A DNA stretch of 38,978 nt from a virus (Duplodnaviria; Heunggongvirae; Uroviricota; Caudoviricetes), in IMG/VR virus record IMGVR_UViG_2713896784_000029; one strand, given 5' to 3'. Each line of letters starts with the position of its first letter. Position 1 is the first letter of the stretch. Shown here piece after piece: positions 9,439 through 37,915 of this stretch. The position numbers and the translations under genes are program-made. The notes under the pieces are model-generated. The model did no database searches and had not been told where the DNA came from. It saw nothing but the letters and a program-made list of their open reading frames with translations.

Positions 9439-9951
9439 ATGAATCGCGCTTCCCTGATTACCTTAATACATGTCGCAAAACGCGATCTACAGCTTGACCG
9501 GGAGACCTATATATCCGCGCTGCTGGCAGCCACCGGCAAAACCAGCTGCCGGGATATGTCACCGGATGAGTTATCCCGCGTGCTGGATGTTTTCAAAAAA
9601 CGCGGTTTTAAAGTGCGCCAGAAGCCGGTTAACCGGGCCTTAAAACCGGGTACGGTGACCGCCAAAATTCGTGCCATCTGGAAGGTAATGCACCGGCAGG
9701 GCTTTATCTCTGATGGTGCGGAAACCGCCCTTAACCGCTGGGTGAAATCGCAGACGGCCGCGCAGAACGGCGGCGAAGGTGTGGCAAACTGGCAGTGGCT
9801 GGAGCAACACCCCGCCCTGGCCTCAGATGTGCTGGAGCGTCTCAAGCGATGGCACCGCCGCAAAATGCTGGCCGCGATGGGAATGCCCGAACGCACGCTG
9901 ATGGGGTATGACGCCGTTTGCAGGCAGTATGAAAAATCACTTCCCCGTTAA
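9439..9951 (+). CDS. gemA: GemA-like regulatory protein (Mu gp16 family)
   Basis: 170 aa; N-terminus LITLIHVAKRDLQLDRETYISAL fits the GemA/gp16 family pattern; position before Mor/C; GGAG RBS. Confidence 0.7.
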   Translation: MNRASLITLIHVAKRDLQLDRETYISALLAATGKTSCRDMSPDELSRVLDVFKKRGFKVRQKPVNRALKPGTVTAKIRAIWKVMHRQGFISDGAETALNRWVKSQTAAQNGGEGVANWQWLEQHPALASDVLERLKRWHRRKMLAAMGMPERTLMGYDAVCRQYEKSLPR

Positions 9952-9955
9952 CCCC

Positions 9956-9989
9956 AAATCCCGCCACAACGCGGGATTTTTATTTTAAA
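9956..9989 (+). terminator. intrinsic terminator after gemA
   Basis: 9-bp stem AAATCCCGC / GCGGGATTT with 6-nt loop, followed by TTATTTTAAA. Confidence 0.6.
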
Positions 9990-10020
9990 CTTACCGGGAA
10001 CGCGAGAACCGGAGGCTGAT

Positions 10021-10446
10021 ATGACAGAAACTCAGATGAGCATGTTTGGTGGTGACAGTGAGCAACTGCACGCCCTTATCGACCGCCTTGATGACATCCC
10101 TGATGATGTTCTCAAAAAGAACTGGCCGCGGACCCTGTCTGAACTGGTTGAAGTCACCGGCGCAGAACTTCAGCGTCAGGGGATTGAGCCGGTACTGGCC
10201 GGTAAACTGGCACGCAAGGTGGCTGCGGCTCAGGCAGCCTATATGGGCGGACGGGGTTATTACCTGCCGGTCGGGGAATCTCTCTTTGCCGAGCTGCGAA
10301 ACAATGAGATATTTTCGCGCTGGGACCGGGGCGAGAAAATTGAATCCCTTCGCCGCCATTACCGGATGTCAGAAACCCAGATTTATACCGTCATACGTGA
10401 ACAGCGCCGTCTGCATCTGGCAAGAACGCAACCGCCACTTTTCTGA
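10021..10446 (+). CDS. Mor/C-family transcription activator
   Basis: 141 aa; C-terminal HTH region (SETQIYTVIREQRRLHL) and overall layout like Mu Mor/C; sits between gemA and lysis genes; RBS GGAGG. Confidence 0.7.
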   Translation: MTETQMSMFGGDSEQLHALIDRLDDIPDDVLKKNWPRTLSELVEVTGAELQRQGIEPVLAGKLARKVAAAQAAYMGGRGYYLPVGESLFAELRNNEIFSRWDRGEKIESLRRHYRMSETQIYTVIREQRRLHLARTQPPLF

Positions 10447-10517
10447 TATTCCGCAAAGCCTGCCGCCTTTCCTTCACCGTTACGCTGACTCAGAGAACAT
10501 CATGAGACAGCGTAACA

Positions 10518-11018
10518 ATGCCAAAACTCCCCGCACCACTGCGTAAAAAGCTGATTGCCCTTGTTCTGGCCGGTGCCGGGACGTTCACGATTGCCACGCA
10601 TTACACCGGTTACTGGGAAGGGAAAGAAAACTCCACGTATATCGATCCCACCGGTACACCCACCATCTGTTACGGCCATACCGGCCCGGATGTGAAACCG
10701 GGTATGACCCTGACGGATGAAGAATGTCTGAAACTGCTGGAAAAGGACATGAAATGGGCCTTTGCGGCCATTGATCGGCGTGTTCAGGTGCCGCTTACCC
10801 GTGGTCAGACGGTGGCGCTGGCTTCGTGGATCTTCTGGGCCGGTGAAACGAACTTTCGCAACTCCACGCTTCTGCGCCTGATCAATGCCGGACAGATGCC
10901 CGCGTCCTGTAAGCAGTATATCCGCTGGATTTATTCAAAGGGGGTGAAACTTCCCGGCCTTGAGGCCCGCCGTTCGGCGGATGAATGGTTATGTCGCTAC
11001 GACTTGCCGAAAGTCTGA
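10518..11018 (+). CDS. SAR endolysin (T4-lysozyme-like, glycoside hydrolase family 24)
   Basis: N-terminal hydrophobic signal-anchor KKLIALVLAGAGTFTIATHY followed by E-x8-D-x5-T catalytic signature (WEGKENSTYIDPTGTPT). Confidence 0.85.
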   Translation: MPKLPAPLRKKLIALVLAGAGTFTIATHYTGYWEGKENSTYIDPTGTPTICYGHTGPDVKPGMTLTDEECLKLLEKDMKWAFAAIDRRVQVPLTRGQTVALASWIFWAGETNFRNSTLLRLINAGQMPASCKQYIRWIYSKGVKLPGLEARRSADEWLCRYDLPKV

Positions 11019-17649: not shown

Positions 17650-17770
17650 CGGTCAGTGGCGGGGGTCGAACCCGCATACATGATCCACCCGGAGGCAGGC
17701 ACCGACTTTACCAGTTAAGCGTACACTGACCGCCTGTTTATTTTATATTCATCCTTTATGCGGAGGCAAT

Positions 17771-18244
17771 ATGTCATCCATTGATGCGGCTGTGGTGGTG
17801 GACGTTACGCGTCTCCAGCGGGTCTTTGCCCGGCTTCAGTTTGTGGGAGGCGGGAAAGGCCTGGCCCGCAGTGTGGCGTCCAGCCTTCTGTCATCGTCAG
17901 AAATGGCGTTTGAACAGGAAAAAGAGCCGGACGGCGAACGCTGGCATGACTGGTCAGATCCTTACCGCAAGTGGCGTACCCGTAAGGGATACATGCCCGG
18001 CAAAATCCTGACGCTGAACGGCGATCTGGCCCGACGCCTGACCACGGATTATGGCGACACCTGGGCGCTGATTGGATCAAATGAGCCTTATGCGGCCATT
18101 CATCAGTGGGGTGGCCTGCCCGGTATGCCGCCGGGACCGGCGGCCATTGGTGCACGTCCGTATATGGGCTTTGATCAGGTGGCAGAGCAGGAGATCATGG
18201 ACGAAATCAGAAAACGCTTTAAAAAGGCCACAGAAACGCCTTAA
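17771..18244 (+). CDS. virion morphogenesis protein (Mu G-like)
   Basis: 157 aa between F and I, GGAGG RBS. Confidence 0.6.
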   Translation: MSSIDAAVVVDVTRLQRVFARLQFVGGGKGLARSVASSLLSSSEMAFEQEKEPDGERWHDWSDPYRKWRTRKGYMPGKILTLNGDLARRLTTDYGDTWALIGSNEPYAAIHQWGGLPGMPPGPAAIGARPYMGFDQVAEQEIMDEIRKRFKKATETP

Positions 18245-18420
18245 TTGTTTAAGGTATGCAAATGCATTACCTTACCCCCTTCAGGCGCGTGTCGTGATTT
18301 TCTAACCTGAATTTAACGGGCTTTAAAATCTGCGTGAAGCGCCTTTGTATTTTTCCCCTGAAAGCACTTCCTGAAATCCCGCAAAACCCGCCCTGAAAAT
18401 TCCCGGCTTATGCTGCCGGA

Positions 18421-19545
18421 ATGAAGACGAAAAACACGCCCAAACTTGCTTATGCCATTCTGAATGCCATCAGCCTGTCCGCAGACGGGGACGGTGACTG
18501 GTGTCAGATCATGCCAGCCGGTCGGGTAAAGGCCCGTGACGGTCGCCCGGAAAAACCGGCTGAAGGCTGGCTGATTAACCGTGCGACCGTTGAGCGCATG
18601 GTATCCCGGGTTGTGGCGCTCAATCAGCCGGTAAAAATTGACTACAACCACCAGACCCTGATTAAGGGGCATCAGGCACCGGCTGCCGGTTTTGTGACGG
18701 CTTCACCGGAAAACTTCCGCTTCAGTGAAGAGCGTGGCTTCGAGGTGCGCCCGAAGTGGAACCCTCCGGCCCTTGAACATCTGCGTAATAACGAATTCCC
18801 CTGGTTTTCACCGGTGATTGGCTATGACGAGAGCACCGGCGAACCTGTCGAACTTCGGATGCTGGCTATTACCGGTGACCCCGGTCTGACCGGCATGAAT
18901 CCTGTCGCCGCGCTGTCGGCGGATGACCTTTATAACGCCTTAAACCCTCCTTTAAAGGATACCTCCATGAATGAGCAATTACGCCAGTTGCTGACAGCGC
19001 TCGGTCTGACCGTGGCTGACGGTGACGAATTTACGCCGGAGCTGGGCACGGCGGCGCTGTCTGCCCTCACAGGGATCAAAACCCGCGCGGATGCACACGA
19101 CAACCTGAAAACACAGGTCGCCAGTCTGTCGGCAGAGCTGGAAACCGCAAAAGGCACACCGGCTGGCGGCAGTATTGATCTGACGAAATACGTGCCCGTT
19201 GAAACGTATAACGCCCTGCGTACCGAATACGTTGCGCTGTCGGCACAGCACGGCAGCACCACGCTGGAGCAGGTGCTGGACAAGGCTGAATCCGAAGGGC
19301 GCATCTTCAAAAGCGAACGCGGCTATCTGGAACAACTGGGTGGGCAGATTGGTGTTGCGGCACTTTCTGCACAACTTGACGCCCGACAGCCGGTTGCGGC
19401 CCTGACCGGCCTTCAGACCGACACCGTGACCGTGCCGGATAAAAAGACTGCCACCGCTGCGCTGTCGGCTGAAGATATCGCCGCTGCCCATCTGCTGGGT
19501 AAAACCGAAGCCGAGTTCCTGAAAATGAAAGAGGAAATGCAATAA
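18421..19545 (+). CDS. head protease/scaffold (Mu I-like)
   Basis: 374 aa directly upstream of major head gene; Ala-rich helical C-terminal half typical of scaffold domain. Confidence 0.65.
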   Translation: MKTKNTPKLAYAILNAISLSADGDGDWCQIMPAGRVKARDGRPEKPAEGWLINRATVERMVSRVVALNQPVKIDYNHQTLIKGHQAPAAGFVTASPENFRFSEERGFEVRPKWNPPALEHLRNNEFPWFSPVIGYDESTGEPVELRMLAITGDPGLTGMNPVAALSADDLYNALNPPLKDTSMNEQLRQLLTALGLTVADGDEFTPELGTAALSALTGIKTRADAHDNLKTQVASLSAELETAKGTPAGGSIDLTKYVPVETYNALRTEYVALSAQHGSTTLEQVLDKAESEGRIFKSERGYLEQLGGQIGVAALSAQLDARQPVAALTGLQTDTVTVPDKKTATAALSAEDIAAAHLLGKTEAEFLKMKEEMQ

Positions 19546-20535: not shown

Positions 20536-20919
20536 ATGAATGAACATCACACTGTGGCAGCAACAGATGATTCAGGTCTTCAGGTCAGTGGTGACAATTC
20601 TGTCACGGTGCTGGCAGAAGTGCGTTGCAGTCGTTCGGCGTTTCGTCGTGCGGGGTTCCTGTTCACGCGTGGACGTCAGCAGGTTGAGGTCACCCCGGAG
20701 CAGCTTGCCCGACTGGAGGCGGAGCCATGCCTCACTGTGCGAATACTACAGACGTCTGCTGATGATGCGGGGAGCGTGGCGGGTGTGGTTCATGCAGTGG
20801 CCTGTACAGATTTAGCCGAAGCCGAAGCCGAAGCCGAAGCCGAAGCCGAAGCCGGACAGGATGCTCCCCGGAAAAAGACCGGTAACAAAGCGAAACAGGC
20901 GAAAAAGGCCCGCGCATGA
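20536..20919 (+). CDS. hypothetical head-region protein with (Ala-Glu)6 linker and basic C-terminal tail
   Basis: 127 aa; RBS GGAGGG; contains AEAEAEAEAEAEAG encoded by (GCCGAA)6, then KKTGNKAKQAKKARA. Confidence 0.45.
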   Translation: MNEHHTVAATDDSGLQVSGDNSVTVLAEVRCSRSAFRRAGFLFTRGRQQVEVTPEQLARLEAEPCLTVRILQTSADDAGSVAGVVHAVACTDLAEAEAEAEAEAEAGQDAPRKKTGNKAKQAKKARA

Positions 20920-34348: not shown

Positions 34349-34447
34349 GACGCTCTCTTTGTTGGGCCTTTACTGAATTAACGCAAAATGGCGTTTATCG
34401 GTCTGTGGATATGATAATTCAGTTTATTCAGGAACAGGCTGATTATT

Positions 34448-36487
34448 ATGACGTCCAAATGGGTTCAACTATCATCAATGCCCGGAAACTTTACTGTTAA
34501 AGTTTCCGGTGGTACAGCGGCATTTCTTGAGGCTCCCTTTCCTCCGGCCGAAACAAAAGGAGGAATGACATTTGCTGACTGTCTCATCAGTTTTAATACA
34601 CGGGATTGCCTGTGGGTAAGGCCAGTATCCGGTGATCCGAGTGTGGAAATTACCGGAGCGGGTATTGGTGCGGTCATTCCGTTAAGTGCTGATGTTGCCG
34701 GTACTGCTGAACCGTCAGACTGGGATAATGCTGAAACACATACCCGTCCGTCAGGAAATGAAACTGCTTCCAGCTCCCCTTCCTGGTATTACGTGGTGGT
34801 TCTTGCTGGTCAGTCAAACGGTATGGCTTACGGTGAAGGTCTGCCACTGCCGGAGACATATGACCGCCCCGAACCGCGTATTATGCAGTTAGCCCGTCGC
34901 AGTACAGTCACGCCGGGAGGTAAAGCCTGTCAGTATAACGACATCATTCTGGCCGACCACTGTCTGCATGATGTGCAGGATATGAGTGGAAAAAATCACC
35001 CGAAAGCGGATGTGGCTAAAGGGCAATATGGCACCGTGGGTCAGGGGCTTCACATTGCCAAAAAACTGCTGCCGTTTATTCCGGCAGATGCGGGGATTCT
35101 GCTGGTTCCCTGCTGCCGTGGTGGTTCTGCATTCACGGCGGGTGCTGACGGCACGTACAGTGACAGCACGGGTGCTTCAGAGGACTCAGCCCGCTGGGGT
35201 GTGGATAAGCCGCTGTATAAGGACTTAATCAGCCGGACAAAAGCGGCACTGGCGAAGAACCCGAAAAACCGCCTGCTTGCTGTGGTGTGGATGCAGGGCG
35301 AGTTTGATATTGATGCGAAGCCGACGGAGCATTCCGCGCTGTTTCTGGCGATGGTGGAAAAATTCCGCGCAGACCTGGCTGAACAGGCGGAACAGTGTAC
35401 CGGTGGCAGTGCTGCTGGCGTTCCGTGGATTTGTGGCGATACCACGTATTTCTGGAAACAGAAAAATGAACCGGCATACCAGGCAATCTATGGCGGCTAC
35501 AAAAACAAAACAGATAAAAACATTCATTTCGTTCCATTAATGACAGATGAAAATGACGCGAATGTACCCACCAACAATCCGGCAGAAGACCCGGATATTG
35601 AATCCATTGGTTATTACGGCTCAACGTGGCGTAACAGTGCCGCCACCTGGACATCTGCGGACCGGGCCAGCCATTTCAGTTCATGGGCACGTCGTGGGAT
35701 TATTTCCGACCGTCTGGCCACGGCAGTTCTGACTCATGCGGGGCGAACCACAGTAAAAGCCGATGTTCCATCTTCTGAAACTGAAGCACCAGTGCCGTCA
35801 CCTTCAGAAACTGAAGCAGTAACCACAACACTGCTGTCTTATCGTGTCAGTGAGTCAGAAGGAAATCTGAAAGCCCAGGGCTGGGAGCCGGCTGGCGGTA
35901 AAGCTGAAATTATCAGTGATGCAGGAGGCACAGGTGGTAAGGCAATGAAACTGACCAAGGAAACAGGTAAATCATCCTGGTATCTGGATCATGATGCCGG
36001 TACTGGTGCTGAACTGCTGAAAAATGGTGGTTTAATCAGTTGTCGTTTTAAAGTACCTGGCGACCTGGTGGCAAACCAGTATGTCATGGGGCTTTACTGG
36101 CCGGTTTCCTCTCTGCCGCAGGGTGTCACCCTGACAGGGGATGCAGGGAATAATCTGCTGGCATCGTTCTACATCCAGACAGACGCAAAAGACCTGAATG
36201 TGATGTACCACAATGCAAAAGTGGCAACAAATAACCAGAAACTGGGAACCTTTGGTGCATTTGATAATGAATGGCATACGCTGGCCTTCCGTTTTGCAGG
36301 AAATAACAGCCTTCAGGTTATTCCGGTTATTGATGGTCAGGATGGTGCCGCGTTTACCCTGACGCAGTCACCAGTAGGAACTTTCCCGGTGGACAAACTC
36401 CGCGTAACGGATATCACAAAAAATGCAACTTACCCGGTGCTGATTGACAGCATTGTGGTGGAAGTGAAAAAAGCGGTAACAGAATAA
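34448..36487 (+). CDS. cargo SASA/SGNH-type carbohydrate O-acetylesterase (prophage NanS-p-like) with C-terminal beta-rich domain
   Basis: 679 aa; VVVLAGQSNGMAYGEG (Ser motif) and VVWMQGEFD (WxQGE.D) match the sialate O-acetylesterase family signature; SETEA-SETEA linker then ~230-aa beta-rich domain; located between gin and com where Mu has no gene. Confidence 0.6.
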   Translation: MTSKWVQLSSMPGNFTVKVSGGTAAFLEAPFPPAETKGGMTFADCLISFNTRDCLWVRPVSGDPSVEITGAGIGAVIPLSADVAGTAEPSDWDNAETHTRPSGNETASSSPSWYYVVVLAGQSNGMAYGEGLPLPETYDRPEPRIMQLARRSTVTPGGKACQYNDIILADHCLHDVQDMSGKNHPKADVAKGQYGTVGQGLHIAKKLLPFIPADAGILLVPCCRGGSAFTAGADGTYSDSTGASEDSARWGVDKPLYKDLISRTKAALAKNPKNRLLAVVWMQGEFDIDAKPTEHSALFLAMVEKFRADLAEQAEQCTGGSAAGVPWICGDTTYFWKQKNEPAYQAIYGGYKNKTDKNIHFVPLMTDENDANVPTNNPAEDPDIESIGYYGSTWRNSAATWTSADRASHFSSWARRGIISDRLATAVLTHAGRTTVKADVPSSETEAPVPSPSETEAVTTTLLSYRVSESEGNLKAQGWEPAGGKAEIISDAGGTGGKAMKLTKETGKSSWYLDHDAGTGAELLKNGGLISCRFKVPGDLVANQYVMGLYWPVSSLPQGVTLTGDAGNNLLASFYIQTDAKDLNVMYHNAKVATNNQKLGTFGAFDNEWHTLAFRFAGNNSLQVIPVIDGQDGAAFTLTQSPVGTFPVDKLRVTDITKNATYPVLIDSIVVEVKKAVTE

Positions 36488-37640: not shown

Positions 37641-37670
37641 AAATCGAATCGATCGTTTTTGTCGATCGAT
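37641..37670. promoter_or_regulatory. mom-operon regulatory palindrome with two GATC (Dam) sites
   Basis: AATCGATCG-TTTTTGT-CGATCGATT inverted repeat about 45-75 bp upstream of com; GATC at 37651-37654 and 37664-37667. Confidence 0.5.
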
Positions 37671-37714
37671 TGCATGAGAAAGGCATCAACAACAAAGCAG
37701 GAGGTTATGCGGTC

Positions 37715-37915
37715 ATGTATCGAAACATACGGTGCCGACACTGCAATAAGCTACTGGCACGGGCCAGTTTCAGTTATCTGGAAGTAAAATGTCCGCGCTG
37801 TAAAACCCTCAATCAAATCACATCTCCGAGCGCCACAGAGCACCCCACATACACAAGGAAATCCTGTCGTGGGGAACAGAAAGCAAGTCACATCCCGAAT
37901 CATCAGCACGCCTGA
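37715..37915 (+). CDS. com: Com zinc-finger translational activator of mom
   Basis: [30 protein letters not shown] parallels Mu Com (IRCKNCNKLL...IRCPRCK); ORF overlaps the mom start as in Mu. Confidence 0.8.

Follow-up and report, generated by a model that had tools for sequence, protein, structure and literature searches.

The 176-bp gap between the G-like and the I-like gene of a Mu-like prophage, located at positions 18245–18420 of the window (the whole analyzed stretch of 38,978 nucleotides), most probably represents the Sp18-type version of the composite G–I control region of phage Mu, in which a gyrase site, a terminator, and a late promoter are combined. From the sequence comparisons presented here, we put the probability of this reading at about 0.8. 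The gap carries the same three signals as the Mu gap and thus constitutes an ordinary and largely already described feature. It is known in kind and essentially also in this very sequence, as the near-identical gyrase site of the prophage from Escherichia coli O157:H7 Sakai has been studied experimentally. The details of the promoter and the likely leaderless message of gene I are modest additions to this known feature. A first-pass annotation of the same DNA had interpreted the gap as a late promoter and/or gyrase-site analogue. [quoted passage not shown] That annotation mentioned neither the conserved right arm nor the terminator-like hairpin, and the actual activator box and the -10 hexamer were likewise missing from it.

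The Sp18 Prophage Family and Its G–I Gap

The window was matched to chromosomal Mu-like prophages of E. coli and belongs to the Sp18 type. A 461-base query around the gap yielded up to 100% identity to E. coli chromosomes, with the 100% match in RM9245, and the query sequence occurs in 228 of 5426 complete E. coli genomes, many O157:H7 strains among them. The counterpart in E. coli O157:H7 Sakai (NC_002695.2, 5040971–5079729) is annotated as “prophage Sp18, Mu-like phage.” Its G–I gap is located 18.3 kb into the 38.76-kb prophage, also comprises 176 bp, and is identical to the window gap at 173 of 176 bases, the three substitutions lying at 18310, 18361, and 18408. The Sp18 gyrase site of the Sakai strain was reportedly tested by Oram and Pato in 2004, and Oram et al. 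are said to have tested Sp18 as well in 2006.

The annotated prophage starts with genes for the repressor, a Ner-like protein, the transposase, a MuB-like ATPase, Gam, GemA, one Mor-family activator, and the lysozyme, which are followed by terminase, portal, F-like, G-like, and I-like head genes, the major head gene, and the tail genes, with com and mom at the end. The gap is bounded by the stop of the G-like gene at 18244 and the start of the I-like gene at 18421. The G-like virion morphogenesis gene at the left border (17771–18244, plus strand) matches the Pfam family Phage_tail_S with an E value of 1.9e-33 and is named “phage virion morphogenesis protein” by PGAP, and the I-like protease/scaffold gene at the right border (18421–19545, plus strand) matches Mu-like_Pro (E = 1.9e-76). 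Further upstream, the Mor/C-family activator gene (10021–10446, plus strand; Pfam Mor, E = 3e-32) and the lysozyme gene (10518–11018) were likewise assigned by Pfam. These Pfam and PGAP assignments of the flanking genes, together with the alignment with Mu, bear out the earlier proposal that the gap is the central equivalent of the Mu G–I interval, to which it is homologous by both position and sequence. The existing annotation shows no feature between 18245 and 18420, an Rfam search of the gap returned no known RNA family, and none of the small open reading frames that overlap the gap (those of 20–21 amino acids as well as others overlapping G and antisense to I) is in a conserved frame.

For comparison, G–I gaps were taken from E. 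coli variants, Citrobacter braakii, Muvirus phages, and 37 IMG/VR contigs, which resulted in 31 distinct sequences. The single-protein search of species-representative genomes gave one locus, which is the one from C. braakii. Within the 31-gap set, the G proteins are 54–99% and the I proteins 48–99% identical to those of the window. The gaps measure 169–180 bp in most Sp18-like lineages, 190–196 bp in the Muvirus phages, and 204–239 bp in a third group. In the GenBank record of Mu, the G–I gap is 196 bp long. The gyrase cut site is placed at 17879/17880, 20 nt past the G stop, and is followed in order by a predicted terminator (TransTermHP) at 17908–17953, the promoter PI at 17977–18043, and the I start at 18056. 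In agreement with this record, the 133-bp “Mu SGS” fragment of Sutormin et al. (PMC6379681, supplement) maps to Mu 17812–17944 and is centered on AATC at about 17876–17879.

Some further elements were observed elsewhere in the prophage. The 121-nt gap between F and G, which Mu does not have because its F and G genes overlap, contains a tRNA-like element on the minus strand at 17651–17730 that reaches 31 bits against a threshold of 29 bits for the Rfam tRNA family. Its 7-bp acceptor stem is perfect and a T-arm is present, but the anticodon region is irregular. ARAGORN finds nothing there, and PGAP assigns “tRNA-OTHER” in three E. coli prophages. A promoter-like site, TTGCCT-18-TAAAAT, is located just upstream of this element on the minus strand (17769–17740). 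The open reading frame 20536–20919, a homologue of the HI1506-related head-tail connector, harbors about 4–6 tandem copies of the hexamer GCCGAA at ~20815–20840. Upstream of com, which starts at 37715, there is a GATC-rich inverted sequence CGATCG…TCGATCGAT at ~37650–37672 that is reminiscent of the region governing the Mu mom promoter through Dam methylation and OxyR; the late-activator box described below was not seen at this place.

Putative Gyrase-Site Right Arm, Terminator-Like Hairpin, and Palindrome

[quoted passage not shown] Its right arm is the essential part (2023 review, PMC10052514) and is described in the literature as a series of phased bending signals that wrap the C-terminal domain of GyrA. 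Many gyrase sites have been tried in place of it, of which only one, that of the Mu-like prophage in O157:H7 Sakai, supported Mu replication (review PMC10052514). The same review gives a delay of about 100 min for Mu without an SGS. [quoted passage not shown] It reads CGCG..G.GATTTT..AAnCTG.ATTTAACGG..TTTAAAA, with phased T-tracts, its Mu counterpart being ACGCGCCACGGGATTTTTAAACCGGTATTTAACGG, and it is kept in all 31 distinct gaps including those of the Muvirus group. Identity to Mu amounts to 67% for the right arm (18280–18330), compared to 57% and 46% for the G and I genes and 52% for the C-box (18366–18390); the core, the spacers, and the block from the -10 hexamer to the ATG range from 22 to 41%. 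Where Mu has GATTTTTT as the first T-tract of its right arm, the window has ACCCCCTTCAGG. Besides the homologous block, the location in the G–I gap is common to both phages and corresponds to ~47% of the prophage length here and 48.7% in Mu. In the more distant lineages (group 3 and L047), the block consists of a phased direct repeat, TTTTTGAAGGGG-TTTTAAACGGGG, with TTTT(G/A)AA-GGGG as the repeated unit, and the complementarity of the inner stem is lost. Such a phased direct repeat fits a bending signal and not a stem.

The phasing was also assessed numerically. An unbiased best-of scan at a period of 10–11 bp picked the A-tracts of the promoter region (18370–18411) and not the right arm. Since the best-of statistic is inflated, a fixed-region test of A/T versus G/C periodicity was used, in which the right arm of the window ranks in the 97–99th percentile of the window and the Mu right arm in the 97–99.9th percentile of Mu, with a period of ~12 bp in both arms. 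An A/T-versus-G/C template derived from the 133-bp gyrase consensus failed its positive control, as the true Mu SGS was not among the top sites that it called in Mu. Taken together, the right-arm homology and the near identity to the Sakai site, which according to the review replaces the Mu SGS, designate the gap as a putative strong gyrase site of the Mu type. The right arm (about 18286–18355), with its phased T-tracts and G+C-tracts, would wrap the C-terminal domain of GyrA. Processive supercoiling from this central site would then draw both prophage arms into a plectoneme and in this way unite the prophage ends for replicative transposition.

The same DNA can be read as a terminator. On the plus strand, a two-tier hairpin spanning 18283–18344 is followed by the T-run TTGTATTTTT at 18345–18354. 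It is predicted to fold at -21.8 kcal/mol (z = -2.6), and it overlaps the right arm. The base of its stem, AGGCGC/GCGCCT, is followed by UUGUAUUUUU, so that a G+C-rich stem and a U-run are present as in an intrinsic terminator, the hairpin being atypically long for one. A simple terminator scanner run on the window did not call this hairpin because its loop is longer than 8. In Mu, folding of the homologous DNA gives a homologous two-tier hairpin followed by a T-rich run, which corresponds to the TransTermHP terminator 17908–17953 of the Mu record. The two differ in the outer stem, which is AGGCGC/GCGCCT here and ACGGGATTT/GAATCCCGT in Mu. The end of the Mu lys transcript was reportedly mapped between G and I by Zha, Zhao and Howe in 1994. 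A hairpin with a T-run occurs at the same place in the Citrobacter type, as judged from folding, and in L047 and group 3, as judged by eye. Built from right-arm DNA, the hairpin and its T-run would end the late transcript that runs from lys to G. As the hairpin overlaps the right-arm block, a single sequence can be read as both right arm and terminator, and this applies to Mu and the window alike.

An alternative is that intrinsic termination of the lys-to-G transcript alone accounts for the conservation of 18283–18354, with the palindrome further upstream (18251–18273) forming an RNA hairpin for 3′-end formation or stability and the gap having no special role for gyrase. That both hairpins of the gap fold better than shuffled sequences and that the Mu record places a terminator on the homologous DNA would suit such a view, as would the recurrence of the first hairpin in Sp18-like lineages with different sequences, which fits a selection for base pairing. 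Yet group 3 and L047 lose the pairing of the inner stem and keep the direct phased repeat TTTT(G/A)AA-GGGG, and in Mu, the nearly identical site from Sakai reportedly functions as an SGS (PMC10052514). Moreover, terminator and gyrase functions are compatible with each other, and Mu has both. We therefore regard a role restricted to termination as quite unlikely and favor a gyrase site whose right arm doubles as a terminator.

The palindrome noted in the first-pass annotation, AAGGTA-TGCAAATGCAT-TACCTT with an 11-nt center, is indeed present at 18251–18273, as can be read directly from the sequence. As an RNA, it is predicted to fold at -10 kcal/mol (z = -3.55). Nonetheless, taken alone it lies within chance expectation: perfect inverted repeats with arms of at least 7 nt occurred in 52 of 400 shuffles of the gap (13%), and in 118 of 400 (30%), some 30-nt piece reached a folding energy of -10 kcal/mol or lower. 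Its value as evidence for a gyrase site lies in its position and not in its sequence, which is not conserved, with an identity of 20–40%. In the alignment with Mu, it is placed opposite the cleavage region, with GGTATGCA|AATG|CATTACC in the window and CAGGCATAA|AATC|AGCCGC in Mu, where the cut region is GGCATAA|AATC|AGCC. Furthermore, the distance from the palindrome center (18262) to the G of the conserved GATTTT is 34 bp, compared to 33.5 bp between the center of the Mu cut and the same anchor. The 23-bp palindromic core distinguishes the window from Mu, which has almost no dyad at its cut region. In each of the other Sp18-like lineages, a hairpin-capable dyad of differing sequence is found at the palindrome position. 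Consensus folding of this hairpin across the lineages gave 4 weak pairs and weak covariation; that the pairs are few is due to the alignment register, which differs between lineages. Because of its position opposite the Mu cut, we infer by position only that the palindrome is the core of the gyrase site. It would hold the G-segment with the cleavage core, for which a 4-bp cut stagger at AATG (18261–18264) is predicted. In addition or instead, it may serve as a hairpin in the RNA where the G message ends.

Putative Late Promoters of I and lys

In Mu, the activator C binds an imperfect dyad centered at -43.5, and the late promoters have no -35 element (PMC2582627). A candidate promoter of this type was found in front of I. 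The C-like activator box CACTTCCTGAAATCCCGCAAAACCCGCC comprises 28 bases at 18365–18392 on the plus strand, and the same box recurs immediately upstream of the lysozyme gene at 10437–10464, where it belongs to a sister late promoter with the -10 hexamer TACGCT (10481–10486, plus strand). The -10 hexamer of the promoter for I is TATGCT (18409–18414, plus strand), with a predicted transcription start at or next to A18421. At both promoters of the window, CCGCAAA is followed after exactly 23 nt by TAyGCTG, and in Plys and PI of Mu, CCATAAT and GCATAAC are likewise located 23 nt from the -10 hexamers. The hexamer 17 nt upstream of TATGCT, where a -35 element would be located, is ACCCGC and offers no usable -35.

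The local alignment of the I box with the lys box scores 16. Of 3000 shuffles, 22 attained this score, and among 1529 further 100-nt pieces of the window, not one did. In three lineages, the lys and I promoters carry the core TTnCTGAnnTnCCGCAAAnCC...TAnGCTG without variation. A search for the activator gene in viral contigs found close relatives only, which confined the comparison of lys promoters to lineages other than the Citrobacter type and group 3. The composite pattern CTGANNTNCCGCAAANCC-N19-21-TANGCTG, which was derived from these same promoters, was searched in 2.9 million viral contigs and gave 57 matches, all in this phage family: 28 precede I, 29 precede the lysozyme gene, and none is located elsewhere. 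A weight-matrix scan of the window detected only two strong sites, at I and lys, and one weak box at 34368. This weak third box, CTGAATTAACGCAAAATG (34368–34415), has 3 mismatches and a TATGAT 22 nt downstream. It lies upstream of an open reading frame for 679 amino acids (34448–36487; DUF6645 according to PGAP) and may be an extra late promoter for this accessory gene.

In the multi-lineage MAFFT alignment, TATGCT stands opposite the Mu PI -10 hexamer CAAACT, and the window box stands opposite the Mu PI box AGCATAACCCC. At lys, the sequence TCAGAGAA downstream of the -10 is common to both phages and thereby fixes the register, such that TACGCT corresponds to the Mu Plys -10 hexamer TAGACT. 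Inspection of the boxes by eye revealed a dyad in the lys box, CTTTTCTGA-TAT-TCCGCAAAG, that matches at 7 of 9 positions, whereas the I box matches at 4 of 9. If transcription starts at 18420/21, the center of the I box lies at -44 to -45, compared to the published position of -43.5 for the C dyad (PMC2582627).

The gene at 10021–10446 is the single Mor/C-family gene of the window. Like Mu C, it is located just before lys, and its product shares 39% identity with Mu C, compared to 28% with Mu Mor; a tblastn search of the window gave no second copy. It is presumed to encode the activator of both late promoters. In the region 9439–10446, a GemA-like gene precedes this one Mor/C-family gene, whereas Mu has both Mor and C. 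With a single gene of this family, the phage may do without a separate middle stage of transcription. On the whole, the promoters resemble PI, Plys, PP, and Pmom of Mu in that they have a -10 without a -35, in that the activator box ends 23 nt upstream of the -10, in that the box is common to the lys promoter of the same phage, and in that a C-like Mor-family gene lies just upstream of lys. They differ in the box itself, which is TTyCTGAwnTyCCGCAAA here and of the CCATAAyCCC type in Mu, as well as in number, with two strong sites in the window compared to four in Mu and one Mor/C gene compared to two. Box, spacing, -10, and activator gene thus speak for a C-type late promoter for I, as the first-pass annotation had suggested. 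Bound to TTCCTGAAATCCCGCAAA, with the center about 44–45 bp upstream of the start, the C-like activator would turn on this sigma-70 promoter, which has no -35.

The repeats that had originally drawn attention to the gap fared differently. Three exact copies of CCTGAAA are present at 18357, 18370, and 18392 as described, while the supposed variant at 18304 is a CCTGAAT that actually starts at 18306, and the A at 18310 on which its likeness depends is specific to the lineage of the window. Copy 1 (18357–18363, plus strand) lies upstream of the box and is CCTGGAA in Sakai Sp18 and CCTGTCA in other variants. Copy 3 (18392–18398, plus strand) lies in the non-conserved promoter spacer and is CCCGAAA or CCCAAAA (CCCCGAAAA or CCCCAAAAA) in other E. 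coli variants. Neither of these two copies is present in the Citrobacter-type relatives. Only copy 2, with its core CTGA, sits in a conserved element, in which it forms part of the left half TTCCTG of the activator box; TTCCTG is found in Mu Plys as well. A triple of this kind is close to what chance would give, as some 7-mer occurred at least three times in 369 of 5000 dinucleotide shuffles of the gap (7.4%), there are ~17 other such places in the window, and CCTGAAA is over-represented window-wide with 19 copies compared to 5.9 expected. Among the relatives, CCTGAAA keeps neither the copy number nor the sequence that would be expected of iterons. Since copies 1 and 3 are not kept in relatives, the CCTGAAA repeats as such are not a functional unit.

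Two other accounts of this part of the gap have to be weighed against a C-type promoter with the -10 hexamer TATGCT. The CCTGAAA copies might be iterated binding sites for the activator or for another protein of phage or host, for which one could invoke that three exact copies lie within 42 bp and that the copies together with the A-tracts produce a local A/T phasing at the 99.5th percentile. However, Sakai Sp18 and other variants keep everything else without copies 1 and 3; the lys promoter manages with only one copy-like element, TCTGATA, and a triple 7-mer arises as often in shuffles as stated above. We consider this account highly improbable. The other account concerns the register of the promoter. 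Here, GAAAAT (18395–18400) would be the -10, transcription would start near 18407, and the CCGGC/GCCGG hairpin would form a short 5′ leader before I. The first pairwise alignment with Mu, which sets CCTGAAAAT opposite the Mu -10, pointed in this direction, as does the 7-bp hairpin (CTGCTCA/TGAGCAG) that Mu has between the -10 and the start codon of I, and the inverted repeat at this place is kept across lineages. However, GAAAAT is not conserved, as the Citrobacter type has CTCGCC there, and a -10 at the corresponding distance is missing from the lys promoter, which makes this register less likely than that of TATGCT. Furthermore, TAnGCTG holds the 23-nt spacing from CCGCAAA at both promoters in all lineages, and at lys, the shared TCAGAGAA downstream of the -10 pairs TACGCT with TAGACT, the -10 of Mu Plys. 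Overall, a -10 at GAAAAT appears unlikely, and TATGCT is retained as the probable -10 of the I promoter.

The Start of Gene I and the Composite Region

With TATGCT as the -10, the promoter for I comes very close to the gene. The hexamer ends 6 nt before the ATG, and a spacing of 6–7 nt is also found in the Citrobacter-type lineage, L047, and group 3. In Mu PI, by contrast, 32 nt separate the -10 from the start codon, leaving a leader of ~26 nt. Gene I has no alternative in-frame ATG, GTG, or TTG before codon 31, and there is no Shine-Dalgarno sequence upstream of the ATG. Given the short distance, the missing alternative start, and the missing Shine-Dalgarno sequence, the I transcript probably begins with the start codon itself, which would make the message leaderless. 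Within gene I, a Z-like start, ATGAATGAA, is located in frame at 18967 (plus strand, codon 183). It has its own AAGGA upstream, and its surroundings match those in which the Mu scaffold protein Z starts (…GGAGAACAAACCCATGAATGAA).

The -10 hexamer is enclosed by an inverted repeat, CCGGC-TTATGCT-GCCGG (18403–18419, plus strand), which ends 1 nt before the ATG. In the lineages L033–L050, stems of different sequence are found, with the same geometry in most of those tested; they end 0–2 nt before the start codon, and the stem of L033 is 3 bp long. Examples are GACCG/CGGTC, GACCGCC/GGCGGTC, and GCTGCC/GGCGGC. Per lineage, such an inverted repeat is reached by 7–20% of shuffles, except for L042 (1.6%) and L033 (76%). 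That the inverted repeat around the -10 is a conserved feature is thus suggestive.

These features can be joined into one scheme, which we offer as possible, if on balance doubtful. In the Sp18 type, the I promoter would fire directly onto the start codon and give a leaderless message for the protease/scaffold precursor, unlike in Mu, while the abundant scaffold Z would be made from its own ribosome-binding site at 18967. The inverted repeat would hide the start codon on read-through transcripts, and one stretch of DNA would serve both as terminator and as gyrase-wrapping arm.

For the Sp18 family of transposable prophages in E. coli, the comparison bears out that central gyrase site, terminator, and late promoter occur jointly and form one compact module. 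About 4% of complete E. coli genomes, many Shiga-toxin strains among them, carry a prophage of this family. The result provides exact coordinates for annotating the gap. The 31 gaps together also reveal the right-arm bases of the SGS that the different lineages have retained, information that could guide the engineering of gyrase sites. To this picture, the probable leaderless start of gene I adds a minor and testable point.
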